A stretch of DNA of 46,862 bases, taken from Gammaproteobacteria bacterium (GTDB lineage Bacteria; Pseudomonadota; Gammaproteobacteria; GCA-002705445; GCA-002716945). The position numbers and the translations under genes were made by a program. The stretch lies in NCBI GenBank assembly GCA_965660795.1, contig CBFIBF010000005.1:1-46862 (forward strand), written 5' to 3'. Positions 1,794 to 46,831 of this stretch are shown here, piece by piece. The notes under the pieces are model-generated. The model saw nothing but the letters and a program-made list of their open reading frames with translations. It ran no database searches and was not told where the DNA came from. The number at the start of each line of letters is the position of its first letter. Within the stretch, counting starts at the first letter, position 1.

Positions 1794-4700
1794 ATGCAAG
1801 AAATATTAAATATGTTCAAAAAAAATAATAATGATAAGAAATTTGATCACATAAAAATTTCACTCGCATCTGCTGATTTGATGAGATCCTGGTCTTATGG
1901 TGAAGTAAAGAAACCTGAGACGATTAATTACAGAACTTTTAAACCTGAGAGGGACGGACTGTTTTGCGCTAAAATTTTTGGACCAGTAAAAGATTATGAA
2001 TGCTTATGCGGTAAATATAAAAGACTCAAGCATAGAGGCGTAGTATGTGAAAAATGCGGAGTTGAAGTTACATTATCAAAAGTAAGAAGAGAGAGAATGG
2101 GGCATATTGAACTTGCAGCACCTGTTGCTCATATATGGTTTTTAAGATCGCTACCATCAAGAATTGGATTGATGATGGATATGACGCTCAGACAAATTGA
2201 AAAAGTCTTGTATTTTGAAGCTTTTATAGTCATAGATGGAGGACTAACTCCTTATGAAACTGGAAGCCTTCTCAATGAAGAAATGTACACTCATGCTATT
2301 GAAGAATATGGCAATGAAATTAAAGTTGGGATGGGCGCAGAAGCAATAAAAGAATTACTAATGAAAATTGATTTAAAAAAATCATATGAAGACCTTGCTG
2401 AAGAGATAAAAGTTACAAAGTCTCAAGCAAAAAATAAAAGAAATATTAAAAGACTAAAATTGCTCGAATCTTTTATAAAATCTGGCAATAAACCAGAATG
2501 GATGATTCTTGATGTGCTACCAATTTTACCTCCTGATCTAAGACCATTAGTACCACTGGAGGGAGGACGCTTTGCTACATCAGATCTTAATGATTTATAT
2601 CGTAGAGTAATAAACAGGAATAACAGGCTTAAAAGATTACTAGAGTTAAAAGCGCCTGATATTATCGTTAGAAATGAAAAAAGAATGCTGCAAGAATCCG
2701 TAGATGCTCTTTTAGACAATGGTAGAAGAGGAAGAGCAATAACAGGTACCAACAAAAGGCCACTTAAATCACTTGCTGATATGATTAAAGGCAAGGGCGG
2801 AAGATTCAGACAAAACCTATTAGGTAAAAGGGTAGACTATTCAGGAAGGTCGGTTATTGTTGTTGGTCCTACACTGAAACTTCACCAATGTGGTATACCT
2901 AAGAAAATGGCTTTAGAGTTATTCAAGCCACACATTTTCGGAAAACTTCAATTAAGAGGCATAACCACAACAATTAAATCTGCTAAAAAAGTAGTAGAAA
3001 AAGAGGGAGAAGAGGTTTGGGATATTTTAGAGCAAATAACAAAAGAGTACCCGGTTTTATTAAACAGAGCACCGACATTACATAGGCTTGGTATTCAAGC
3101 ATTTGAGCCTGTATTAATCGAAGGTAAAGCTATTCAATTACATCCTCTAGTGTGTGCCGCGTTTAATGCAGATTTTGACGGGGACCAGATGGCTGTACAT
3201 GTTCCTTTATCCGTTGAAGCACAAACAGAAGCACGTGTGCTTATGATGGCCACGAACAATATTTTATCACCCTCAAATGGGAGCCCAATTATAGTACCTT
3301 CACAAGATATGGTTTTGGGAATTTATTACATGTCAAGAGAAAAACCTGGCTGTAAAGGTGAAGGCATGATTTTCGCGGATGTCGACGAAGTATCTAGAGC
3401 ATACCAATCAAAGATAATAGACATGCACGCAAAAATAAAAGTCATGATGAATGTCACTGAGTATAATGATGATGCGCTAACTCAAAAAAATAAGATAGTA
3501 GAAACAACTACGGGCAGAGCACTCATATCACAAATATTGCCGAAAAATATTCCTTACTCTTACATTGACCAAGACTTAAATAAAAAAGCAATATCAAAAT
3601 TATTTGACGTCTCTTATCGTCTAGCTGGGCTAAAAGAGACAGTTCTTTTTGCTGACAACATTAAAAACATGGGATTTAAATACTCTACTCTTGCAGGTGT
3701 CTCAATTGGCGTTGATGATATGGTAATTCCAAAAGAGAAGGTAACGATTACAGCAAAAGCAGAAAAAGAAGTTAAAGAAATAGAGAAACAGTATAACTCT
3801 GGATTGCTTACAGCTGGAGAGCGATATAATAAAGTTGTAGATATTTGGTCACATACTAACGATAAAGTTTCTCAAGCAATGATGAAGCAGCTGGGAACAG
3901 AAACAACTAAAGTTTCTGGTGGTAAAAAAGTTGAGCATAAATCATTCAACTCGATTTATATGATGGCTGACTCTGGAGCTAGAGGGTCTGCTGCACAAAT
4001 AAGGCAATTATCCGGAATGAGAGGATTAATGGCTAAACCCGATGGATCAATTATCGAAACACCAATTACTGCAAACTTTAGAGAGGGACTGGATGTAATG
4101 CAGTATTTTATTTCAACACATGGCGCTCGAAAAGGTCTTGCTGATACTGCTCTTAAAACTGCAAACTCTGGTTACCTAACCAGAAGATTAGTGGATGTTT
4201 CTCAAGATTTAGTTGTGACAGAAGATGATTGCGGTACGGATAATGGCATACTAATGAAGCCTTTGATTGAAGGTGGTGATATTGTTGAACCACTTAATGA
4301 GAGAGTGCTCGGCAGAACATTGCTTCGTGATTTAGTGAATCCAAAAACCAATGAACTTATATTAGCTAAAGATACTCTACTAGATGAAAATAACGTATCT
4401 TTGTTAGAACAAAATGCTATTGATGAGGTTTGGGTAAGATCTGTAATTACATGCGATATTAGACATGGCGTTTGCGCTAAGTGTTATGGAAGAGATCTTG
4501 CTAAAGGAAGACAAGTTAGCATTGGAGAAGCAGTTGGAGTAGTTGCCGCGCAATCTATTGGTGAACCTGGCACTCAGCTTACAATGAGAACATTCCATAT
4601 TGGCGGAGCAGCATCCAGAGCCGTCGCAGCTAACAGCATAGAGGTAAAAAATTCTGGGGTAATCAGATATCATAATCTCAAGACAGTTGTAAATACTCAA

Positions 4701-6002
4701 AAAGAAATTGTGACTGTTTCAAGATCTGGTGAACTAGGCGTTTTAGATGACAGTGGTAGAGAAAAGGAAAGATATAAAATTCCTTATGGAGCAATTATCA
4801 AGGCAAACGATGGAGATAAAGTAGAAATAGGACAAAACATTGTAACATGGGACCCTCACACAACACCTATCATTACTGAGACAGCCGGTATAATAGAATT
4901 TGAAGATTTTGAGGATGGTATAAGCGTAGAAAATATTGTCGATGAGCTAACTGGTATAACATCCATAAAAATAAAAGATATTACCAGTAGGTCTTTTGAC
5001 AAAAATAGAAAACCAATGATTAAATTAGTGGACTCAAAAGGGAAGGATTTAACACTTTCGAACTCTAACCTTCCAGCTCATTATCATCTGCCTTCAAATT
5101 CAACTGTTAACCTTACAGCGGGTAGCAAGGTTGGCATTGGTGATGTTATTGCGCGCACACCACGTGAGACATCAGGTACTAGAGATATTACGGGCGGATT
5201 GCCTAGAGTTGCAGACTTATTTGAAGCTAGAGAGCCAAAAGATAAAGCTGAACTTGCTGTGCAAACTGGTGTTGTATCATTTGGTAAGGAAACAAAAGGT
5301 AAGCGTCGACTAATAATTACTGATGACCAAGGCAATGAGCATGTACAGATGCTCGCTAAAACTAAATTACTTAACGTCTTCGAAGGCGCGAGTGTCACCC
5401 AAGGAGAAATCATCTCAGATGGTGAGCTAGATCCACATGATATTCTAGCTTACAGAGGAGTTACTGATCTTGCGGAGCATCTAGTGAAAGAAGTTCAAGA
5501 CGTATATAGATTACAAGGTGTTGGCATAAATGATAAGCATATAGAAGTCATTTTAAGACAAATGCTAAGAAAAGTAGAAATAATATCATCTGGCGACACT
5601 ACATTAATGCCTGGCGAACAAATGGAGAAAAACCAGGTGCTTGAGATTATAGATTCACTTAAAGCTGAGAACCCAGACTCTGTATTACCAACATATAAAC
5701 TATTGCTACTTGGTATTACGAAAGCATCACTGGTAACTGAATCATTTATCTCTGCTGCATCATTCCAAGAAACAACACGTGTTCTTACTGATGCTGCAGT
5801 AAATGGCAGGAAAGATAAACTCAGAGGCTTAAAAGAAAATGTTGTTGTTGGAAGATTACTTCCTTGTGGAACAGGACTCTCTCAAAAGGATGATGATAAT
5901 GAATCATTTGAGGATATGTTAGAAAAAGAGATAGCAAGTGAAATCAATATACTTCCTGAAAAATCACCTAAAACTTCTGCTGAAGATCTATTTAATGATT
6001 AG
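1794..6002 (+). CDS. rpoC: DNA-directed RNA polymerase beta' subunit
   Basis: 1402 aa. Zn-binding [20 protein letters not shown] and catalytic [12 protein letters not shown] are present. Collinear with E. coli beta' along its whole length. Confidence 0.98.
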
Positions 6003-6036
6003 CCAGATGTTTTTTATCAATATCTTTAATCATTTC

Positions 6037-6065
6037 TTGACACTAACTTGCACTACCAATAGAAT
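6037..6065 (+). promoter_or_regulatory. Sigma70-type promoter for the str/r-protein operon (TTGACA-17 nt-TAGAAT)
   Basis: TTGACA at 6037-6042, exact 17-nt spacer, TAGAAT at 6060-6065. It lies in the 86-nt rpoC-rpsL gap, 24 nt upstream of the rpsL ATG. Confidence 0.6.
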
Positions 6066-6088
6066 TTCGCATACTTATTAGGAAATAT

Positions 6089-6463
6089 ATGGCTACTATT
6101 AATCAACTTGTAAGAAAACCAAGAAAAACAAAGGTTGCAAAATCCGATGTACCTGCACTTGAGGCTTGCCCTCAACGCAGAGGAGTTTGTACTCGCGTCT
6201 ACACAACAACACCTAAGAAGCCAAATTCTGCACTTAGGAAAGTTGCAAGAGTGAGGTTGACTAATGGACAGGAAGTCACTTCATACATTGGTGGTGAAGG
6301 GCATAATTTGCAAGAACATTCTGTAGTCGTAATAAGAGGTGGTAGAGTGAAGGATTTACCTGGCGTCAGATATCATATTGTTCGCGGAAGTCTCGATACA
6401 CAAGGAGTCGAGAATCGTAAGCAAGGCAGATCAAAATATGGTGCTAAGAAACCAAAGAGTTAA
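6089..6463 (+). CDS. rpsL: 30S ribosomal protein S12
   Basis: 124 aa. [13 protein letters not shown]..., [11 protein letters not shown]. First gene of the str cluster. Confidence 0.98.
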
Positions 6464-6465
6464 AA

Positions 6466-6936
6466 ATGCCAAGAAAAAGAGATATACCTAAAAAAAAGAT
6501 TTTGCCTGATCCAATTTATAAAAGTACTAATGTTACTCGCCTTACTAACATGATTATGCAAGATGGTAAGAAGAGAACGGCAGAAAAAATAGTTTATGAC
6601 GCTCTATCAATTTCTTCAAAAAAAACAAAAGAGGAACCGTTAATAGCTCTTGATAAAGCACTTCAAAATGTAGGCCCAAGTGTCGAGGTAAAATCAAGAA
6701 GAGTAGGTGGTTCAAATTATCAAGTTCCTATTGAAGTGAATTCGAAAAGAAAAATCTCTCTAGCAATGAAATGGATTATAGAAGCTGCCAGCAAAAGAAA
6801 TGAGAAATCTATGCGCGAAAAGCTTGCGTCTGAAATAAGTGACGCAATCGATAATAAAGGTTCAGCGGTTAAAAAGCGTGAGGATACACATAAAATGGCT
6901 GAGGCAAATAAAGCGTTTGCTCATTACAGGTGGTAA
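6466..6936 (+). CDS. rpsG: 30S ribosomal protein S7
   Basis: 156 aa. MPRKRDIP... and C-terminal AHYRW. Starts 2 nt after rpsL. Confidence 0.98.
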
Positions 6937-6939
6937 GAA

Positions 6940-9039
6940 ATGGCTAGAACAACAGAATTAACTCATTATCGCAACATTGGAATAATGGCACATATAGATG
7001 CAGGTAAAACAACTACAACAGAAAGAATACTCTATTACACTGGTGTTTCACATAAAATAGGTGAAGTACATGATGGAGCTGCAACTATGGACTGGATGGA
7101 GCAAGAGCAAGAGAGAGGTATCACAATTACTTCTGCAGCTACGACCTGTTTTTGGGAGGGCAGCACCGGTCAATATGATCAACATAGAATAAATATTATA
7201 GATACACCGGGACACGTTGATTTCACAATTGAAGTTGAGAGATCATTGAGAGTCCTTGATGGTGCTGTAGCAGTTTTCTGCGCTGTTGGTGGAGTTGAAC
7301 CACAATCTGAGACTGTCTGGAGACAAGCTAATAAATATAGTGTTCCTAGAATGGCATTTGTAAACAAGATGGACCGAGCGGGAGCAGATTTCTTTAGAGT
7401 CGTCGACCAGATCAAAACTAGACTAGGGTCTAAACCAGTTCCACTTCAAGTACCTATTGGGTCTGAAGATAACTTCAAGGGAGTTGTAGATCTAATTAGT
7501 ATGAAAGCTATTATTTGGGATGAAGAATCAAAAGGCATGAAATTTGACACCGTAGATATACCAGATGATCTTAAGGTTAAATCTGATGAGTTACATGAGC
7601 AGCTGGTTGAAACAGCAGCTGAAGCAAATGAAGAGCTAATGGATGAATATTTAAATAATGGAGAATTATCAAAAGAAAAAATAATTGAAGGATTGAGGTT
7701 ACAAACTCTTGCTAATGAAATAGTACTTGTAACCTGCGGTACAGCTTTCAAAAATAAAGGAGTACAGGCAATGCTTGATGCTGTGATTGAATTTATGCCT
7801 TCTCCTTTAGATGTTCCTGCGATTAAAGGTATAAACGATGATTCTGAAGGCTCTGAAGGTGTTAGAAATTCCTCTGATGATGAGCCATTTGCATCTCTTG
7901 CATTTAAGATTGCAACAGATCCTTTTGTGGGTACACTCGCATTTTTTAGAGTATATTCAGGCGTCTTAAAAGCAGGTGATACTGTATATAATGCTGTCAC
8001 ACAGAAAAAAGAGAGAATTGGCAGAATTTTACAAATGCACTCAAACTCTAGAGAGGAAATAAAAGAAGTTAGAGCAGGAGATATTGCTGCTGCAGTTGGA
8101 TTGAAAACAGTCACTACAGGTGATACTCTTTGCGATCCATCTTCTGTAATTACGTTAGAAAGAATGGAGTTTCCTGAGCCAGTTATTTCTATTGCAGTAG
8201 AACCTAAAACAAAAGATGACCAAGAGAAAATGGGATTAGCTCTTGGAAAACTTGCTCAAGAAGATCCTTCATTTCGAGTATCCACAGATGAAGAATCTAA
8301 CCAAACTATTATTTCTGGTATGGGAGAGTTACATTTGGATATCATTGTAGATAGAATGAAAAGAGAGTTTAATGTTGAAGCAACAATAGGTAAACCTCAA
8401 GTTGCTTATAGAGAAACCATCAGAAAACCTATCGAACAGGAAGCTAAATACGTCAAACAAAGTGGTGGTAAAGGTCAATATGGACATGTTTGGCTTAAAA
8501 TAGAGCCGCAAGAGCCTGGTAAAGGATATGAATTTGTAAACGAAATTGTTGGTGGCGCAATACCAAAAGAATTTATTGGACCTGTAGATAAAGGTGTAAT
8601 CGAACAAATGGAAAATGGGGTCATAGGCGGATATCCTGTTGTAGATGTGAAAGTGACATTATTTGATGGTTCATTTCATGATGTAGATTCCAGTGAAGTC
8701 GCCTTCAAAGTTGCTGGATCACAAGCTTTTAAAGAAGGAGCAAAAAAAGCGAATCCAGTATTGTTGGAACCCGTCATGAAAGTAGAAGCTGTAACTCCAG
8801 GAGATTATCTTGGTGATGTTACTGGAGACTTAAATAGAAGACGAGGAATAATCCAAGGTATGGAGGAAACAGTTGTAGGTAATATCATAAAAGCTGAAGT
8901 ACCTCTGTCTGAAATGTTTGGTTATGCTACTGATCTAAGATCCATGACTCAAGGAAGAGCAACATATACTATGGAATTTGAGAAGTATGCAGAAATTCCA
9001 TCAAACATAGCTGAAGGATTAATAGAGAAGGCTTCATAA
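6940..9039 (+). CDS. fusA: Elongation factor G
   Basis: 699 aa. GTPase motifs [21 protein letters not shown]. Full-length EF-G architecture. Confidence 0.98.
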
Positions 9040-36824: not shown

Positions 36825-36843
36825 GATAACAAGAATCATTATC
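36825..36843. promoter_or_regulatory. Fur box (16/19 match to GATAATGATAATCATTATC)
   Basis: GATAACAAGAATCATTATC. The right half-site is a perfect 9/9, the centre matches, and the left half is 6/9. It lies 15-33 nt upstream of the pyrD start codon, in the pyrD/rubrerythrin divergent region. Confidence 0.6.
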
Positions 36844-36869: not shown

Positions 36870-36907
36870 TTGACATATATATTTTATAAATTTAGAATCA
36901 TTCTAAA
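36870..36907 (+). promoter_or_regulatory. Rubrerythrin-operon promoter (TTGACA-17-TAGAAT) overlapped by the perfect palindrome TTTAGAATCATTCTAAA (Irr ICE-like / Fur-family 7-1-7 operator)
   Basis: -35 at 36870-36875, -10 at 36893-36898, palindrome at 36891-36907. SD AGGAG at 36917-36921 and ATG at 36928. Confidence 0.65.
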
Positions 36908-36927
36908 TAATAATTTAGGAGAATATT

Positions 36928-37347
36928 ATGAGCTTAAAAGGTTCAAAAACAGAACAAAACCTAAAAGATGCATTTGCTGGTGAGTCACAAGCGAATAGAC
37001 GTTATCTTTACTTTGCGGCAAAAGCTGATGTAGAAGGACAAAACGACATAGCTACCGTATTTCGTTCAACAGCTGAAGGAGAAACTGGGCATGCTCATGG
37101 TCACCTTGAGTATCTTGAAAAAGAATGTGGTGACCCAGCAACAGGTGAACCTATCGGTGATAGCGTATCTAACTTGAAAGCAGCTATAGCTGGAGAAACT
37201 CATGAGTATACAGATATGTATCCTGGAATGGCAAAGACAGCTAGAGATGAAGGCCATGATGAAATAGCTGACTGGTTTGAAACTCTTGCTAAAGCTGAAA
37301 GATCTCATGCTAATCGTTTTACAAAAGCATTGGAATCAATCTCATAA
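36928..37347 (+). CDS. Rubrerythrin-family diiron protein without a rubredoxin domain (erythrin-type)
   Basis: 139 aa. [26 protein letters not shown]. Two E...ExxH ligand sets (ETGH, ERSH). No CxxC pairs. Confidence 0.9.
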
Positions 37348-37405: not shown

Positions 37406-38728
37406 ATGGACGTAACTAATAAAAACACAACCACAGAAGGCGGATTAGAAAAACCAACCAGGCATATAATTGATTGGAAAAATCCTGACTTTTTAAATGA
37501 AGAAAAGTATGAGCAAGAGCTTAGAAGGGTTGCTGACGCATGTCACGGATGTAGACGTTGTGTTAGCTTATGTAACTCATTTCCAAGCCTGTTTGATTTG
37601 ATAGATAATTCTGAGACTTTTGAAGTTGATGGTGTAGCTTACGAACAGTTTAGTTCTGTAGTTGATCATTGCTATCTTTGTGATTTATGCTTTATGACGA
37701 AGTGCCCTTATGTACCACCACATGAATGGGAAATAGATTTTCCTCATCTTATGTTGAGGGGTAAAGCTATAAAGGATTCAAAAAAGAAAACAACATTAAG
37801 AGACAAAATCCTTTCATCTACAGACTTGCTCGGTAGATTATTTTCAAGACCACTAATTTCGAGTTTTGTTAACTTTTTTAATGGTTTGAAACTTTTCAGA
37901 AAGTTACTAACCTTATTTGGTATTCATCAAAACGCTAAACTACCTAAATTTGTGTCTAAGACTGCTAAAAATTTAGAGCTCATGAACCATGTTGATAATG
38001 CATCACACAAAGTTGCTATATATACAACTTGTTATCATAATTATAACGAACCTGGTGTAATTAAAGATTTCTATGACATTTTAAAACATAACAATGTGAC
38101 TGTAGATATAATCTCTCAAGACAACTGTTGTGGTATGCCTAAGCTTGAACTGGGAAATATTACTAAAGTGGAAGAGATGATGAAAAATAATCTCCCGCAG
38201 TTTAAAAAATATGTAGATGATGGTTATCTAATAATAGCACCCATACCTTCTTGCGTATTAATGTATAAACAGGAGTTGCCATTACTATTTCCCGACAACC
38301 AAGATCTTATTAATGTATCACAATCATTTAGAGACCCATTTGAATTTTTGAATATGCTAAATGATAAAGGAACATTAAAAAAAGATTTCAAAGCAAAACT
38401 TGGTAATATTTCTTATCAGGTCGCATGTCACCAAAGGGTACAAAACTTTGGGATGTTGACAAAAAAAATTCTCGAATTAATACCAGGAACAAAAGTTGAT
38501 GCATTAGAACGTTGTTCTGGACATGATGGTACGTATGGCGTCAAGTTAGAAACACATGATATTGCAATCAAAATTGCCAAACCCATAACTAAAGCATTCA
38601 AAGATGCAAATTTTGATAGCTTTACGAGCGATTGTTCGTTAGCTGCTCATCATATTGAAAATTCATTGGGTAACATGCAGGCGCCTGAACATCCAATTAG
38701 TCTAATTAAAAAAGCATACGGAATATAA
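37406..38728 (+). CDS. HdrD/GlpC-like iron-sulfur oxidoreductase (2x[4Fe-4S] ferredoxin motifs plus two CCG domains)
   Basis: 440 aa. CHGCRRCVSLC and CYLCDLCFMTKCP. Cysteine-rich CCG-type segments (TTCYH..NCCGMP..PSCV and VACHQ..RCSGHDG..SDCS). Confidence 0.85.
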   Translation: MDVTNKNTTTEGGLEKPTRHIIDWKNPDFLNEEKYEQELRRVADACHGCRRCVSLCNSFPSLFDLIDNSETFEVDGVAYEQFSSVVDHCYLCDLCFMTKCPYVPPHEWEIDFPHLMLRGKAIKDSKKKTTLRDKILSSTDLLGRLFSRPLISSFVNFFNGLKLFRKLLTLFGIHQNAKLPKFVSKTAKNLELMNHVDNASHKVAIYTTCYHNYNEPGVIKDFYDILKHNNVTVDIISQDNCCGMPKLELGNITKVEEMMKNNLPQFKKYVDDGYLIIAPIPSCVLMYKQELPLLFPDNQDLINVSQSFRDPFEFLNMLNDKGTLKKDFKAKLGNISYQVACHQRVQNFGMLTKKILELIPGTKVDALERCSGHDGTYGVKLETHDIAIKIAKPITKAFKDANFDSFTSDCSLAAHHIENSLGNMQAPEHPISLIKKAYGI

Positions 38729-38730
38729 AA

Positions 38731-39312
38731 ATGAAATTAGAAATATCAAACTTACTATCGCTTGAAGAGTATGATTCTGAAAGAGAAAATTTAAAAAAAG
38801 ATGTTATCAATCATAAAAAAAATAGGACTGTAAGTATAGGAGACAACATTGTTCTTATATTTGAGGACTTCAAAACAATTAAATATCAAGTACAAGAGAT
38901 GCTTCGTATTGAGAAAATATTTAAAAAAGATGAAATACAAGAAGAAATTGATGCCTACAATCCTCTTATACCAGATGGTACGAATCTGAAAGCGACTATG
39001 TTAATAATGTATCCTGATGTAGAAGTAAGGAGACAAATGCTTCTTAAACTTCATGACATTGAAAACAATATTTGGATATCTGTTGGTCAAAAAAAGGTTA
39101 TTGCTTTTGCAGACGAAGATTTAGATAGAAGCACTGATGAAAAAACATCCGCCGTACACTTTTTAAGGTTTCAGTTCACTCATGACGAGGTAACTGAATT
39201 TCTATCCAGCGATAAAATAGTAGTCGGGGTTAACCACAAAGAGTATGATAAAGAAATAATTCTTGATAAGGCTGTTAAAGAAAGTCTTGAAAAAGATTTT
39301 AAGTCTAGTTAA
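38731..39312 (+). CDS. DUF3501-family protein (function unknown)
   Basis: 193 aa. The pattern EMLRIEKIF...EIDAYNPLIPDGTNLKATMLI...EKTSAVHFLRFQF matches my recollection of DUF3501 proteins that accompany rubrerythrin / Fe-S gene pairs. Starts 2 nt after the upstream gene. Confidence 0.7.
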   Translation: MKLEISNLLSLEEYDSERENLKKDVINHKKNRTVSIGDNIVLIFEDFKTIKYQVQEMLRIEKIFKKDEIQEEIDAYNPLIPDGTNLKATMLIMYPDVEVRRQMLLKLHDIENNIWISVGQKKVIAFADEDLDRSTDEKTSAVHFLRFQFTHDEVTEFLSSDKIVVGVNHKEYDKEIILDKAVKESLEKDFKSS

Positions 39313-39315
39313 TTT

Positions 39316-39714
39316 TTACTTATTTCTAACTTTAATAAGTACTTCTGTGCTTTCAATTTGCAAGTTTTTAGGCAATTCAGGAAAATCTGAAAATACTACT
39401 TGGTCATGATCTACATCAGTTAGTGTACTCATAGTCGTGTTGTATAAATGATGATGGTTATCTAAATTTGTATCATAAAATTTTAAATCATTTTCAATGT
39501 TGATAGTTTTTAGCATTCCTTTTGACTCCAATAAAGATAAAGTATTGTAAATAGTTGCCATGGAAATGTTTAAGCGCTTCTTGTCTGCTACAGAGATAAG
39601 GTCAGCAGCTGTAAAATGTTGTTTTTTAGAAAAAATTAACTTAGCTAAATCAACCCTCTGTTTTGTAGGGGTAACATTCAGTTTTCTGTATATTGTTTCG
39701 TACTTATTTTCCAT
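39316..39714 (-). CDS. Fur-family transcriptional regulator, cysteine-free Irr-like subtype
   Basis: 132 aa. Winged-helix segment (TPTKQRVDLAKLIF...ISMATIYNTL..LE.KGML), then FYDTNLDNHHHLY and C-terminal FPELPKNLQIESTEVLIKVRNK. No Cys at all, so no CxxC zinc site. Collinear with rhizobial Irr as I recall it. Confidence 0.8.
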   Translation of the reverse strand: MENKYETIYRKLNVTPTKQRVDLAKLIFSKKQHFTAADLISVADKKRLNISMATIYNTLSLLESKGMLKTINIENDLKFYDTNLDNHHHLYNTTMSTLTDVDHDQVVFSDFPELPKNLQIESTEVLIKVRNK

Positions 39715-39754
39715 ATACGAGAATTATAATATATTAATATACAAATCTTAATAT

Positions 39755-40642
39755 CTAATTATGTAATTTTTCTAATATTTTATGTATGGCTGATGAATCT
39801 AAATCTGATAAATTTTCTTGTTCTGCTAATTTCATTAATTTCTTTACATGATTTAAACCTTTTAAATTAATTTCCAATTGCTTTGTAAGGTTTTTGGCTA
39901 TCTTTAAATCCTTATGATGGAGAGACAGTTTAAATCCGGGGTTAAAGTCTGAATTAATCATTCTCAAGCCATGGATATCGAGTATTTTGCTATTAGCATA
40001 TCCTGCTAGGAGCGCCTCTCTAATTAGTCTAGGGTCAATATTTGATTTTTTCGCAATATTTATGATTTCACTTATTGATTGAATAGTTTGTGCAACTAAT
40101 ATTTGATTGCACGCCTTGCATACCTGACCTGAGCCACTATCACCGATATATGTAATTTTTTTGCCAACAGCGGCAAGAACATATTTGATTTTTTGATATA
40201 TCTTTTTGTCACCACCAACCATAATTGATAAAGCGCCAGATATCGCACCAGCCTCTCCACCAGATACAGGCGCATCTATGAAATATGAATTCTTTGCACT
40301 TAAGCTAGCATTTATCTCTCTAGCGCCTTGAGGTGAGATAGTGCTCATATCTATAACAATATATCCTTCTCTTATATTATTTATCAAGCCTCTCTTACCT
40401 GTTACTATTTGTTTTACATCTTTGGTATTTGGAAGATTGGTTATAGATAATGATGTGTAGTTAGGAATTTCTTCGATAGCAGAAATAAAAATTCCTCCTG
40501 CAGTTACAACCTCATCAATTATATTTTTTTTTCTAGCAAAGAAGTAAACCTCAAAATTATTTTTGATAAGATTTAAAACCATGGGTTTACCCATGATACC
40601 TAAGCCAATGAAACCAACTTTATATTTTTTACCACTTTTCAT
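39755..40642 (-). CDS. NAD(P)-dependent beta-hydroxyacid dehydrogenase (3-hydroxyisobutyrate / tartronate-semialdehyde reductase family)
   Basis: 295 aa. Rossmann motif VGFIGLGIMG, DAPVSGG, and the catalytic-Lys region GSGQVCKACNQ. Confidence 0.88.
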   Translation of the reverse strand: MKSGKKYKVGFIGLGIMGKPMVLNLIKNNFEVYFFARKKNIIDEVVTAGGIFISAIEEIPNYTSLSITNLPNTKDVKQIVTGKRGLINNIREGYIVIDMSTISPQGAREINASLSAKNSYFIDAPVSGGEAGAISGALSIMVGGDKKIYQKIKYVLAAVGKKITYIGDSGSGQVCKACNQILVAQTIQSISEIINIAKKSNIDPRLIREALLAGYANSKILDIHGLRMINSDFNPGFKLSLHHKDLKIAKNLTKQLEINLKGLNHVKKLMKLAEQENLSDLDSSAIHKILEKLHN

Positions 40643-40644
40643 TA

Positions 40645-41622
40645 ATGATCTATAGTATAATTGAGTATATGATATTTGATTACGTTAAATTCAAAAAATC
40701 TCAACTTTCTACTGAATCACCACTATACTTCATTCACGGAAATCCGAGAAATATAAGTAATGAAATTGAGCATGATATTTTAAATTTCTTTCAAAAATTG
40801 GGCTACAAATCGATGAACTATGTTATTGATGATGATTCCCAAATACAAAAACTTGAGAGTTTATTCAATGAACAATCATTGTTTAATGAGAACAAAATTA
40901 TTATATTGAATATACTATCGAACTCTATTTCTATTAAAATGAAAAGATTTATAGAGACAAGGGTTGAAATATGCACTGATGACAAAATTATCTTAAAATT
41001 AGACCGACAAGCATCATCATTCAAAAAAACTAATTTTTATAAGAAGGTTAGTCAATATGCTTGTGTAATTGAAATATTTGAATTAAAAAACGAAGTTCTC
41101 AAACAATGGTCTCTCAACAAATGTAAAGTTAATAAGGTAGATATAAGCGACTCTGATCTCGAGGAACTTATGAATTCTAATTTTAATAACAGTTTATCAA
41201 TTGCTCAGAATATATACATTCAAAGTCTAATGAATAGCAATCAGCTGTTTCATGGACAAGAGGGGTCTAAGTATTCTGAATATGATTTAGTGGACATGTT
41301 TTTAAGCAGGAATACTCTCGAGTTCATTCGAGCTAGCAACTACCTCAGATCAAATGATACGTCTTTGTCATATATAATATTTCTTTTAAATTCTGAATTA
41401 GAAAAACTTTACTCATTAATTAAACCAGTGAAATATAGACCATATATTCCATCATTCCTATTAAATAAATATTTACAAATCTCTAAAAAATTCTCTCCGG
41501 AAAAAATATTATCTGCAATAAATAATATTGCTACACTTGATGCAAATTCAAAGTACAATCTTAAAAAGTCTAATCCATGGGAGTCTTTTAACTCTATGTT
41601 TTTAGATTTAATGAAAAGTTAG
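40645..41622 (+). CDS. holA: DNA polymerase III delta subunit
   Basis: 325 aa (317 aa if it starts at the ATG at 40669). Divergent, but collinear with E. coli HolA (N-terminal ..LYFIHGN..; length; the position that normally follows lptE). The start is uncertain. Confidence 0.75.
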   Translation: MIYSIIEYMIFDYVKFKKSQLSTESPLYFIHGNPRNISNEIEHDILNFFQKLGYKSMNYVIDDDSQIQKLESLFNEQSLFNENKIIILNILSNSISIKMKRFIETRVEICTDDKIILKLDRQASSFKKTNFYKKVSQYACVIEIFELKNEVLKQWSLNKCKVNKVDISDSDLEELMNSNFNNSLSIAQNIYIQSLMNSNQLFHGQEGSKYSEYDLVDMFLSRNTLEFIRASNYLRSNDTSLSYIIFLLNSELEKLYSLIKPVKYRPYIPSFLLNKYLQISKKFSPEKILSAINNIATLDANSKYNLKKSNPWESFNSMFLDLMKS

Positions 41623-43515: not shown

Positions 43516-43847
43516 TACTTAATGACGAAATAAGCCTTCTACTTGAAGAGTACAAAGCAGAAAATGTAATTAAACTAGATGTCAAAGATAAGTCTTCCAT
43601 AACTGATACAATGATAATTGCTTCTGGTAGATCAACTAGGCATGTAAAATCTATTGCTGATAATATTATCAAGAAACTTAAGAAGATAAAAGTCAAGCCT
43701 CTTGGTATTGAGGGTTATGCTAAATCTGAGTGGGTGCTCATAGATTTTGGTGACGTGCTAGTTCACGTAATGCATCCAGATGCAAGAGAATTTTACTCTC
43801 TCGAAAAATTATGGGACGAAAGTATAAATAACGAACAAATGGTTTGA
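43512..43847 (+). CDS. rsfS: Ribosomal silencing factor RsfS
   Basis: 111 aa. DTMIIASGRSTRHVKSIAD...WVLIDFGDVLVHVM..DAREFYSLEKLW. Follows nadD, as in most proteobacteria. Confidence 0.94.
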   Translation: MILNDEISLLLEEYKAENVIKLDVKDKSSITDTMIIASGRSTRHVKSIADNIIKKLKKIKVKPLGIEGYAKSEWVLIDFGDVLVHVMHPDAREFYSLEKLWDESINNEQMV

Positions 43848-43849
43848 GA

Positions 43850-46831
43850 ATGCCAAAGATAATTAGAGCTTTCACGAATTTAATTCTAATTATTCTTTTA
43901 CTTTTCTCTGTAGTTAAAATATATACAGAACGTTCGTTTTCTCTCAGTGAAAAGCTCACTAATATTATATTATCTAATATAGAAACTGTTTTTGAGGTTG
44001 ATGCTAATATTGAATCAACCAATATTCAATGGCGAGGATTTACTCCCGTCATATATATCCAAAATATTTCATTGCGAGATAGTCAAAAAAACATCACCTT
44101 GTTTATTCCCAGCAGTGAAATTGAATTAAATACACTTAAAACACTAAAAACTCAAAAAATAATTTTCAATCAAGTCACTCTAAACAAAACAAAGATAGAT
44201 TTAAAGCATAGTAAAAAAAATATAATTATTAATAATAAAGTTATAAATAAAAGTACCGCTGATTTAGAAAATGATTTTTTACCTGAAATTATACTAAATG
44301 ACTCATCTGTAAATTTTACAAACATTGAAACAATGCAGTCTGCTTCATTTGAAATCAAAAATCTTAGGCTAACTTATTCACAAAAAGATATTAATATTTC
44401 ATCAATATTTTATCATTCATCGAGTTCAAACCCGATTACTCTTCGTTATAGAGGAGATTACGATAATAACTCTCTTGAAAGTAAATTATATCTTAGTGCT
44501 AATTCTGTAAGTATTCCGTATTCATTATTACCTGCCTATTTCCCAAAAATTGAATCGGATAATGTGACCATGCGTGTATGGCTAACATTATTGAATGATA
44601 AAATTACTAGAGCTACAGGTAATATTTCTACTGACCGACTCAATATTGAAATAAATAACTCGAAAGTCGATCTGAGTAATATTAATAGCGATGTTCTCTA
44701 TATAAATGATAGTGATTCAGAAACTCTTAGTTTGATGCGAACGAATTATATAATCAATAATAAGGAAACTAAAAATAATAAGCTAGTGATTAATAAGGAT
44801 GACAAAGACAATATTAAATTATTTATTGGAAAGGCTGATAGAGAAATCATTCGAGAGGTATATCAGATACTTGATTTAGAAAAACTTAATATTGACAAAG
44901 GACTGCTGGCTAGCAATATCAACAATGTACAGGTTCACAAAAACAATATGAATAGCTTAGATTATTTCAGTTTATCTATTGAGAATCTAAACATGAAATT
45001 AGAAGATGATTATACTTTAGAAAAAGTCAAAGCAGATATCCATGGAAATCTAAGTAAAGCATTTTTGAGGATAAAAGATTCATCTTTGAATAGCCATGGC
45101 TCTGTTTTACTAAACGGTATTTCTGGCGATGTTTCATTTATGACTAAAGGAAAGTCAATTTATTTTAGTAGTTCTGATATCAAAAATCATCAGGGGCACA
45201 CTTTATCTTTTAGTGGTAGGAAAGTTTCTAAATCCTTATCTCTAAAATTGAGTCTGACGTCATCTCTAGAAAATATTATGCCTTTATGGGATCCAATTAA
45301 AGAAATGAATGAAGTTGAGTTTTCAGGAGATATTAATAGCAAGATATTTTTTCATGGAGAAAAATTATTCTCTAGTAATTATATAACGAATATTTATTTT
45401 AATAACACAGACGACATCTATATTTCTTCACCAAGCCTAAATTTATTTACCTCATCAAATTTAATTTTTTCTAATGATTTTCAAATTTCTGTAAATGATA
45501 ATATATTCAATTCCAAGATACTTACAAATAATAATAAAGAATCAAATAAACTGATTATTTCATCACTTGGTATTGTAGATGCAGATTTCCTCAGAAAGTC
45601 ATTCAATATAGATGATATTATTGAAGGTAAGACTAAAATAAAATCTATAGTAACTTACAATCATACCAAGAATAAACTGTCGTCATTTGTGACAAGTGAT
45701 TTAGAGGGTTTAAATATAAATCTTATTGAACCGTTCAATAAACAAAAAGAACAAAAATCTAACTTTTCACTGAGATATCAGCACTCTCCAAAACCTGATT
45801 ACCCAGTAACTTTAACTTTAGATCAACATTCATTTAGAATAAAAAAAGATAAAAAATATATAACCGCCAATATACGCTCGCCACTTGCAAGAGGTTTCTT
45901 TAAATATCCGATTAACAAAAACAACAACGATTCAATAATTGGCTCATTTGAATATATTGATACTAAATACATGAGTAGTGCTGGTTCAGGTAAATCATTT
46001 CCAGCTCTTAATATTAAATCTAAGTATGTTAAAACTGTGGATGTTGTTTTAGACAATGTTCATTTGATACTAAACCCAAAGGAAGATTTTATTTCTATTG
46101 ATAAATTTAGCTTTAAGAACTTAAATCTAGAGATGAACTCTTCAGGTAAATGGTTTAGATCAAATGAAGAGGTTACCGAGATATCTGCTGATATTAAAAG
46201 TGAAAACTTTGGTCAGGCTCTTGCTGGTCTTGGTTATCCTAAAACACTTAAAGGTGGAACTCTAGCAGCTAAACTAGTTGGAAGATGGAGCGGTTCATTA
46301 GAAGATTTTAGTTTTTCAGCAACTAATGGTGATCTTGATTTTAAAATTATTAATGGTCAAATAAATGAATTAGATAAAGGCACTCAAGCCCTAGGACAAG
46401 TATTAGGACTATTCAGCATCTCATCAATACCTAAGAGACTATCATTAGATTTCTCGGATTTTTTTTCTAGAGGATTGAAATTCGATAATCTAAATTCAAA
46501 AGTATTACTCAATAATGGAATAGCAGATACAAAGAAAATGGTAATTATTGGCAGCTTTGGAGAAATGAGATTATCTGGTAAGTCTGACTTACTAAAAAAA
46601 ACTCATGATCAGACATTAGTTTTCATACCTGATCTATCATCTACGAGTTTAGTCACTGGAGCAGTAATAGGTGGTCCAATTGGTGCTGCAGCATCAATAT
46701 TTTATGATAGACTCCTTAAAGAGTTTGGATTAGACACTAATAAGCTTGCAGGAATTGAGTATTCCATCAAAGGACCATGGGAAAAACCTGAAATTAAAGT
46801 AACCCAATCATTTAAACCTATCCTCAATTAA
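43850..46831 (+). CDS. YhdP/AsmA-like large envelope protein (DUF3971 / AsmA_2 type)
   Basis: 993 aa from the ATG at 43850 (track TTG at 43844). N-terminal TM anchor (IIRAFTNLILIILLLFSVV), long beta-rich N/S/K-rich body, and a C-terminus ...GGPIGAAASIFYDRLLK...YSIKGPWEKPEI typical of YhdP-family proteins. Confidence 0.7.
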   Translation: MPKIIRAFTNLILIILLLFSVVKIYTERSFSLSEKLTNIILSNIETVFEVDANIESTNIQWRGFTPVIYIQNISLRDSQKNITLFIPSSEIELNTLKTLKTQKIIFNQVTLNKTKIDLKHSKKNIIINNKVINKSTADLENDFLPEIILNDSSVNFTNIETMQSASFEIKNLRLTYSQKDINISSIFYHSSSSNPITLRYRGDYDNNSLESKLYLSANSVSIPYSLLPAYFPKIESDNVTMRVWLTLLNDKITRATGNISTDRLNIEINNSKVDLSNINSDVLYINDSDSETLSLMRTNYIINNKETKNNKLVINKDDKDNIKLFIGKADREIIREVYQILDLEKLNIDKGLLASNINNVQVHKNNMNSLDYFSLSIENLNMKLEDDYTLEKVKADIHGNLSKAFLRIKDSSLNSHGSVLLNGISGDVSFMTKGKSIYFSSSDIKNHQGHTLSFSGRKVSKSLSLKLSLTSSLENIMPLWDPIKEMNEVEFSGDINSKIFFHGEKLFSSNYITNIYFNNTDDIYISSPSLNLFTSSNLIFSNDFQISVNDNIFNSKILTNNNKESNKLIISSLGIVDADFLRKSFNIDDIIEGKTKIKSIVTYNHTKNKLSSFVTSDLEGLNINLIEPFNKQKEQKSNFSLRYQHSPKPDYPVTLTLDQHSFRIKKDKKYITANIRSPLARGFFKYPINKNNNDSIIGSFEYIDTKYMSSAGSGKSFPALNIKSKYVKTVDVVLDNVHLILNPKEDFISIDKFSFKNLNLEMNSSGKWFRSNEEVTEISADIKSENFGQALAGLGYPKTLKGGTLAAKLVGRWSGSLEDFSFSATNGDLDFKIINGQINELDKGTQALGQVLGLFSISSIPKRLSLDFSDFFSRGLKFDNLNSKVLLNNGIADTKKMVIIGSFGEMRLSGKSDLLKKTHDQTLVFIPDLSSTSLVTGAVIGGPIGAAASIFYDRLLKEFGLDTNKLAGIEYSIKGPWEKPEIKVTQSFKPILN

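Follow-up and report, generated by a model that had tools for sequence, protein, structure and literature searches.

Which protein would act on a perfect inverted repeat that overlaps the core promoter of a rubrerythrin operon, and what would cause that protein to let go of it? The question is raised by a 46,862-nt stretch of DNA, the whole of which we analyzed and hereinafter call the window. Having considered the motif, its position and conservation, and the family features and genomic linkage of a nearby regulator gene, we regard it as probable (roughly 0.7) that the repeat is the operator of a cysteine-free repressor of the Irr/PerR type, which is encoded convergently to the operon at 39316–39714 and would hold this peroxide-scavenging operon off.

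An exact match to the iron control element within the core promoter

The promoter of the rubrerythrin operon comprises a -35 hexamer, TTGACA (36870–36875, plus strand), a 17-nt spacer, and a -10 hexamer, TAGAAT (36893–36898, plus strand), and is followed by a Shine-Dalgarno sequence, AGGAG (36917–36921, plus strand), 6 nt before the ATG at 36928; all these elements were found where the preliminary description had placed them. With 11 of 12 positions matched, TTGACA-17-TAGAAT was the top sigma-70 match that a promoter scan returned between 36500 and 40000, a segment in which promoter-like matches as such occur at chance level (16 seen versus 17.9 expected). The 17-mer TTTAGAATCATTCTAAA (36891–36907; roughly -15 to +3) is a palindrome whose left half-site contains the -10 hexamer, as had been claimed, and the symmetry extends further to a perfect 9-1-9 repeat at 36890–36908 (ATTTAGAAT-C-ATTCTAAAT).

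The standard form of the Per box is TTATAATnATTATAA, from which the window site (TTAGAATcATTCTAA) deviates at symmetric positions 4 and 12, with G/C in place of T/A; the difference of just one symmetric position asserted earlier holds on inspection against this form. One source prints the Per box as TTATAATAnTTATAA, with the 'n' shifted by one position. The 17-mer agrees at every specified position with the iron control element (ICE, or Irr box), the consensus of which is 5′-TTTAGAA-N3-TTCTAAA-3′ and, in Bradyrhizobiaceae, TTTRGAAYNRTTCYAAA (Rodionov 2006, PMC1698941). This consensus had been correctly given in the preliminary description, as had the control by Irr of bfr and mbfA, which is documented together with that of blr7895 (Peuser 2012, PMC3413700). 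Further, the predicted operator lies in the promoter of an iron/oxidative-stress gene and co-occurs with an irr-type gene.

Palindromy by itself is not significant here, because perfect palindromes with 9-nt arms occur in the window at chance frequency (two seen versus 2.15 expected in Markov simulations). The significance rests on the exact match to a predefined motif, for which 0.01 matches are expected per window (TTTAGAANNNTTCTAAA), on the promoter position, and on conservation. When up to two mismatches to the ICE are allowed, the window has one match, the 17-mer itself, against 1.72 expected; since no second ICE was found in it at this tolerance, the window does not define a regulon. The other perfect 9-1-9 palindrome (TTATTGAACCGTTCAATAA, 45723–45741), probably a chance occurrence, is found inside a 995-aa ORF (43844–46831) that occupies the place of a YhdP-domain gene in related loci. 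No Rfam families were found in the window.

The rubrerythrin-RFO-DUF3501 operon

The first gene of the operon codes for a 139-aa aerobic-type rubrerythrin without a rubredoxin domain (36928–37347, plus strand; PF02915, 5.4e-29), the second for a CCG-domain Fe-S oxidoreductase (37406–38728, plus strand; PF02754), which was named RFO by Cardenas 2016 and on which the GlpC models score below their cut-offs, and the third for a DUF3501 protein (38731–39312, plus strand; PF12007, 2.1e-64). The co-localization of these same three genes in the usual order, with a rubrerythrin that lacks the rubredoxin domain, identifies the operon as the 'aerobic-type' RBR-RFO-DUF3501 cluster, which is regarded as a peroxide-scavenging system (Cardenas 2016). 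No regulator of the cluster is discussed in that study, whereas here and in many other lineages the cluster occurs together with an ICE and a regulator of the Irr type.

The rubrerythrin is 79–85% identical to those of eight other loci that span a GC content of 0.31–0.69 (L050, L051, L068, L069, L088, L090, L091, and L092), with which the RFO, DUF3501, and regulator proteins are only 30–42% identical; the identical rubrerythrin protein is present on at least 1000 contigs. To judge from these comparisons, constraint on this small protein appears to be unusually strong.

The gene pyrD is divergent to the operon and begins 81 nt from the 17-mer on the other strand. At the opposite end, the stop codons of the operon and of the convergent regulator gene are just 3 nt apart (39312–39316), and no terminator-like site was found there; given this arrangement, read-through from the operon would be antisense to irr. 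Further along, an mmsB-like gene on the minus strand and holA on the plus strand have divergent start codons separated by 2 nt (40642–40645), such that the promoters of both must lie within neighboring coding sequence.

The convergent gene codes for a cysteine-free regulator of the Irr/PerR branch

The gene at 39316–39714 (minus strand) encodes a 132-aa protein of the Fur family (PF01475, 1.7e-17). Among the NCBIfam models, it is matched best by IrrA (107.7 bits) and Irr (107.5 bits), followed by PerRA (77.6 bits) and PerRB (64.6 bits), with Fur at no more than 37 bits. These scores miss the curated cut-offs of the Irr/IrrA models (~107 bits versus 150 and 170), and those of the PerR models (50–78 bits) compare with cut-offs of 180–250. 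The Irr models came first in all ten relatives that we sampled, two of which pass the Irr cut-offs. The regulator shares only about 35–40% identity with sequences scoring above the Irr cut-offs, and it has no relatives above about 40% identity outside its own group; profile and word searches with it as query returned mostly its own clade. The closest solved structure by sequence is that of Leptospira PerRA (5nl9), a protein that also lacks the structural zinc site.

The regulator has no cysteines at all, i.e., neither a CxxC motif nor the Cys4 structural zinc site, and it lacks the N-terminal heme regulatory motif (Cys-Pro). What it does possess are the residues H33, N57, D81, H87-H88-H89, and D100, of which H33, D81, H87, H89, and D100 are invariant across 28 diverse homologs and N57 is present in at least 90% of them; inside the gammaproteobacterial group all three histidines of the H87-H88-H89 triplet are invariant. 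The five invariant residues make up a 3-His/2-Asp regulatory site and presumably map onto H37/D85/H91/H93/D104 of Bacillus subtilis PerR. In Irr, the HHH motif has a role in heme binding. The metal site of PerR is composed of three His and two Asp, and the presence of this site does not discriminate between the two families because Irr shares the feature. According to published comparisons, the Asp, the Asn, and the absence of CxxC are common to Irr and PerR, and the Leptospira PerRA and PerRB proteins likewise lack the Cys4 site. The heme regulatory motif is confined to the Irr of Bradyrhizobiaceae, most Irr proteins being without it (Rodionov 2006, PMC1698941), and is hence not required for membership in Irr. 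Because its features are common to both, the regulator belongs to the Irr/PerR branch but cannot be assigned to one or the other. The pairing of the 17-mer with this particular protein, as first proposed from the letters of the stretch, is supported by the top rank of the Irr/IrrA models, by the linkage to the operon in many lineages, and by the joint retention of operator and regulator described below.

The promoter scan returned a promoter-like site for the regulator gene itself (TTAAGA-17-TATAAT; 39723–39751, minus strand), and no ICE was found at it. The ATG of irr follows only 8 nt after this TATAAT; given this distance, its mRNA may be leaderless. The name 'iron response regulator' is already in use for these proteins at JGI and in at least one NCBI MAG record, most NCBI records having 'transcriptional repressor' instead.

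Host assignment

The same locus is found in five genome records, all of them labeled Gammaproteobacteria, and the names of the homologs in NCBI agree, with both MAG and SAG records among those so labeled. The RpoC of the window scores 2021–2104 bits against gammaproteobacterial RNA polymerases, including that of Escherichia coli, and 1748 bits against 7ye1; we take the other high-scoring entries to be from Pseudomonas and Xanthomonas, and 7ye1 to be the Caulobacter RNA polymerase. Judged from RpoC and the MAG labels, the host is a gammaproteobacterium and not a rhizobial relative, which places it outside the stated alphaproteobacterial distribution of Irr. Related contigs have sizes of 0.9–1.2 Mb at about 31% GC, and these values point to a streamlined marine genome.

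Two other origins were considered. The low GC and the Pelagibacter precedent had raised the suspicion of a SAR11 (alphaproteobacterial) source, which we rejected in view of the Gammaproteobacteria labels and RpoC. Nor is there support for the cassette having been acquired recently from an alphaproteobacterium: the regulator has no relatives above about 40% identity outside its own group, and RFO and DUF3501 are 30–42% identical to those of the alpha-type loci.

The operator and regulator are kept while the peroxidase gene is exchanged

Related contigs were compared over 8–12 kb each. The regulator family constitutes a large radiation among marine gammaproteobacterial MAGs. In nine close relatives, with regulators 81–95% identical to that of the window, the exact 17-mer and the promoter are kept while bases of the spacer and leader vary. 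The preliminary description had made its proposal depend on the palindrome being present upstream of orthologous operons in related genomes, and this is what we observed.

Four deeper lineages (L101/L102, L103/L104, L105/L106, and L107/L108) share the synteny leuS-lptE-MBL-x-pyrD, followed by a segment X, followed by irr-mmsB-holA-proA-nadD-rsfS. X is the rubrerythrin (rbr) operon, preceded by an exact ICE, in L101/L102 (regulator 60% identical) and L107/L108 (58%). It is instead katG, which codes for a 733-aa catalase-peroxidase, in L103/L104 (regulator 51% identical; katG at 6424–8625), where the ICE is exact, and in L105/L106 (53%; 4427–6628), where the ICE has one outer mismatch. The layout TTGAC(A/T)-17-TAGAAT recurs in L101, L103, L105, and L107, and TTGAC is invariant in all aligned lineages. 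Thus, in two to three lineages the same promoter and operator are followed by katG instead of the rbr operon; this gene is convergent to the regulator gene in L018 (4684–6657) and L015 (468–551) too. An alignment of the spacers between pyrD and X showed only three conserved blocks, namely a Fur-box-like element centered on AATCATT, the -35 hexamer, and AATTTAGAAT(C/G)ATTCTAAATA, with the leader (5′ UTR) changing from 22 nt to about 62 and about 85 nt in the deeper lineages. At regulator identities of 51–60%, the right and left half-sites of the ICE show the same degree of invariance. What has changed, then, is the peroxidase gene, with the operator and regulator retained.

Several cluster genes are broken into fragments in three long-read contigs (L011, L012, and L013) that are otherwise 95–99% identical; leftover frameshift errors, and not pseudogenes, are the most likely cause.

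Irr boxes next to rubrerythrin clusters outside the group

Scanning metagenomes for Irr-like genes with a 7-sequence alignment yielded 80 loci. The rbr-cluster genes adjoin the regulator gene in at least 12 of the 80, and among unrelated loci with a GC content of 0.31–0.69, eight of the ten visible irr-rbr spacers contain an ICE with at most two mismatches; in a shuffle test of these ICE-bearing spacers, at most 1 of 500 shuffles matched for each. In other lineages irr is mostly upstream of, and on the same strand as, the rbr cluster. An ICE between the -35 and the start was seen only in two AT-rich, streamlined marine types, the group of the window and locus L069, in both of which it is 20–22 nt from the ATG. 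Cluster names place several such rubrerythrins in Rhodospirillaceae, Novosphingobium, and other alphaproteobacteria. For some Irr-like genes of the next-nearest subgroup (P0127, P0148, P0149, and P0152), the contexts retrieved were short or unrelated and contained no rbr operon and no ICE.

Several of these loci show features of their own. In L050, L051, L068, L074, L080, L088, L090, and L091 a TTGAC -35 mostly follows 3–7 nt after the end of the ICE, and the leader measures 90–140 nt. Locus L031 (1149–2738; GC 50%) has irr convergent with DUF3501-RFO, as in the window, on a contig that ends before rbr; its RFO (53% identical) and DUF3501 (50%) are the closest outside the group. Sites that are half Per box and half ICE (e.g., TTTATAATAATTCTAAA and TTTAGAATCATTATAAA) occur just upstream of irr-like genes elsewhere (L037, 736–752; L061, 5932–5948; L064, 5925–5941; L067, 5916–5932; L069, 598–614 and 1137–1153). 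As sequences, such hybrids suggest autoregulation and a continuum between the Per box and the ICE; the irr gene of the window, unlike those of the five loci named, lacks a site of this kind.

A candidate Fur site upstream of the promoter

The Fur-box-like 19-mer GATAACAAGAATCATTATC (36825–36843; about -80 to -62) shares 16 of 19 positions with the E. coli Fur consensus GATAATGATAATCATTATC, a level of agreement that nothing else in the window reaches (0.12 matches expected). It lies 27 nt upstream of the -35 hexamer and 47 nt upstream of the palindrome, is invariant among the close relatives, and has as its core the AATCATT that is one of the only three blocks conserved across lineages. In its left half it is as close to an ICE half-site as to one of Fur, and it is a candidate second operator, either for Fur or, as a weak second site, for Irr. 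The element is seen in the spacers of L101, L103, and L107 too, and in the unrelated marine locus L088 a perfect GATAATGATAATCATTATC (about 1897–1915) stands directly upstream of the ICE. The occurrence of a Fur-box-like site beside the ICE suggests a dual input from Fur and Irr, in which the former may bring a separate iron signal.

Proposed mechanism, signal, and competing explanations

From the above we infer that the regulator would bind as a dimer, with its two winged helices each contacting one TTAGAAT heptad of the 7-1-7 repeat; the Asn57 of the regulator, in the place of the Arg of Fur, agrees with a heptad that is not of the Fur type. Since both the -10 hexamer and the predicted start lie within the palindrome, the bound dimer, over about -15 to +3, would exclude RNA polymerase, and the rubrerythrin-RFO-DUF3501 operon would stay off until the affinity of the regulator for DNA drops. 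A transcription start inside the Irr box is regarded as the arrangement of a repressor, as in mbfA of R. sphaeroides and in bfr and the rubrerythrin-like blr7895 of Bradyrhizobium japonicum (Peuser 2012, PMC3413700). Several observations count against this reading: the regulator scores below the Irr cut-offs, palindromes of this size are at chance level, the window has no second ICE, some Irr-like genes are without rbr or ICE, Irr can act as an activator as well, rbr of Pelagibacter ubique responds to iron limitation in the opposite sense, and in most other lineages the ICE is upstream of the -35, which means that the position of the operator, and perhaps the direction of control, varies.

As to the signal, we see about an even chance that release is tied to oxidative/peroxide status. 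Such a release could proceed in the manner of PerR, via the conserved 3-His/2-Asp metal site, or alternatively by a heme- and ROS-dependent route as in Bradyrhizobium Irr. In favor of peroxide, the target is always an H2O2 scavenger, the minimal alphaproteobacterial regulons included, and the targets detoxify peroxide as in PerR regulons, being the rubrerythrin operon here and katG in the sister lineages. Together, the katG swap in those lineages and published expression data lean toward peroxide defense: rbr of Pelagibacter ubique rises 1.57-fold on iron limitation, which is opposite to what simple repression by Irr at low iron predicts, and mbfA of Rhodobacter sphaeroides responds about 9-fold to H2O2 and about 1.5-fold to iron (Peuser 2012, PMC3413700).

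The same expression data weigh on the most serious competing explanation, a canonical Irr, active when iron or heme is scarce, that would repress the iron-costly Rbr, RFO, and KatG and be released by heme at the HHH motif. This was the main proposal of the preliminary description, in which a response to peroxide figured only as an alternative. The explanation, which we hold possible though doubtful, draws on the Irr models outranking the PerR models, the exact ICE, the conserved HHH, and the fact that the alternative targets are all iron or heme proteins (di-iron Rbr, Fe-S RFO, and heme KatG), as well as on the repression by Irr under iron depletion in the species studied (Peuser 2012, PMC3413700). 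However, rbr of P. ubique goes up and not down on iron limitation, the response of R. sphaeroides mbfA to iron is small next to that to H2O2, iron could already be sensed through the separate Fur-box-like site, and the cysteine-free regulator has no heme regulatory motif, even if most Irr proteins lack it as well.

Very unlikely to be correct is the notion that the ordinary Fe-Fur of the genome, and not the adjacent Irr-like protein, binds the palindrome. The 7-1-7 layout is that of the Fur family and the Fur-box-like element stands upstream, but the invariant G/C pair is the signature of the ICE, the Asn instead of Arg in the recognition helix is of the PerR/Irr type, and the ICE accompanies the irr-like gene across lineages. 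The heptad of Fur, moreover, is TGATAAT, from which each heptad of the window differs at two positions.

Slightly less probable still is that Irr activates from this site, or that the site controls the divergent pyrD, whose start is near at hand on the other strand. Irr can indeed also activate from ICEs (Rodionov 2006, PMC1698941). However, a regulator sitting across the -10 and +1 could not activate this promoter, no promoter match on the minus strand turned up when the spacer was scanned, and in L088, L068, and similar loci an ICE precedes rbr with no divergent pyrD present. Finally, the least credible alternative is that of no operator role, the repeat being an AT-rich chance palindrome or mere -10 context, for although both 9-nt-arm palindromes and promoter-like matches are at chance level, the exact predefined motif is expected only 0.01 times, the right half-site is equally invariant despite having no promoter function, and the motif recurs beside irr-like genes in GC-rich genomes, which is highly improbable by chance.

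Relationship to known systems and significance

The repressor and operator that we favor closely recall the systems of B. japonicum blr7895/bfr and R. sphaeroides mbfA, with which they share the operator consensus, the CxxC-less type of Fur-family regulator, the placement of the operator across the start and -10, and an erythrin-type di-iron target; in R. sphaeroides, Irr binds ICE sites in the mbfA and ccpA promoters (Peuser 2012, PMC3413700). They differ in the gammaproteobacterial host, in a regulator that scores below the Irr cut-offs, in a target that, unlike MbfA/Bfr, is the soluble Rbr-RFO-DUF3501 cluster, and in a regulon that appears to be minimal. Minimal Irr regulons have been predicted in Pelagibacter ubique, with rubrerythrin only, and in Rhodospirillum and Magnetospirillum, with cytochrome c peroxidase (Rodionov 2006, PMC1698941). 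These have one or two ICEs per genome and a peroxide-scavenging iron protein as the sole target, and P. ubique resembles the present host in being streamlined and marine; in contrast to them, irr is here convergent and downstream, has no preceding ICE, and the operator has a Fur-box-like partner site. B. subtilis PerR and Leptospira PerRA (5nl9) are alike in the 3-His/2-Asp site, the Asn of the recognition helix, and the 7-1-7 AT-rich operator, and PerR systems also have catalase/peroxidase targets, whereas the regulator of the window differs from classical PerR in lacking the Cys4 site.

Earlier work had described the ICE motif and the regulator family, as well as the RBR-RFO-DUF3501 cluster and the idea of a minimal Irr regulon, and to that extent the gain is incremental. 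An irr gene was also annotated in Acidithiobacillus in 2007. What is new is the gammaproteobacterial setting, the location of the operator inside the core promoter, the exchange of rbr and katG, and the recurring Fur-box partner. Irr and the ICE were not found outside alphaproteobacteria in the earlier survey (Rodionov 2006, PMC1698941), a view that contrasts with the exact ICE and Irr-type regulator found here across a radiation of marine gammaproteobacteria; a known alphaproteobacterial circuit is found intact in an abundant marine gammaproteobacterium. The finding bears on the question, raised for Leptospira, of whether Irr and PerR are truly distinct functional classes, and the promoter offers a simple marker of iron/oxidative stress for ocean metatranscriptomes. 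The exchange of rbr and katG behind an unchanged operator amounts to a natural experiment, which indicates that the circuit was selected for control of peroxide scavenging, whichever enzyme performs it. We therefore put forward, tentatively and at slightly less than even odds, that Irr/ICE control extends beyond alphaproteobacteria, that its minimal and perhaps ancestral job may have been a PerR-like control of the main H2O2 scavenger of the cell, and that an abundant family of streamlined marine gammaproteobacteria would have kept the regulator, operator, and promoter at one site while exchanging the rbr operon and katG, with a Fur-type site adding an input from iron.
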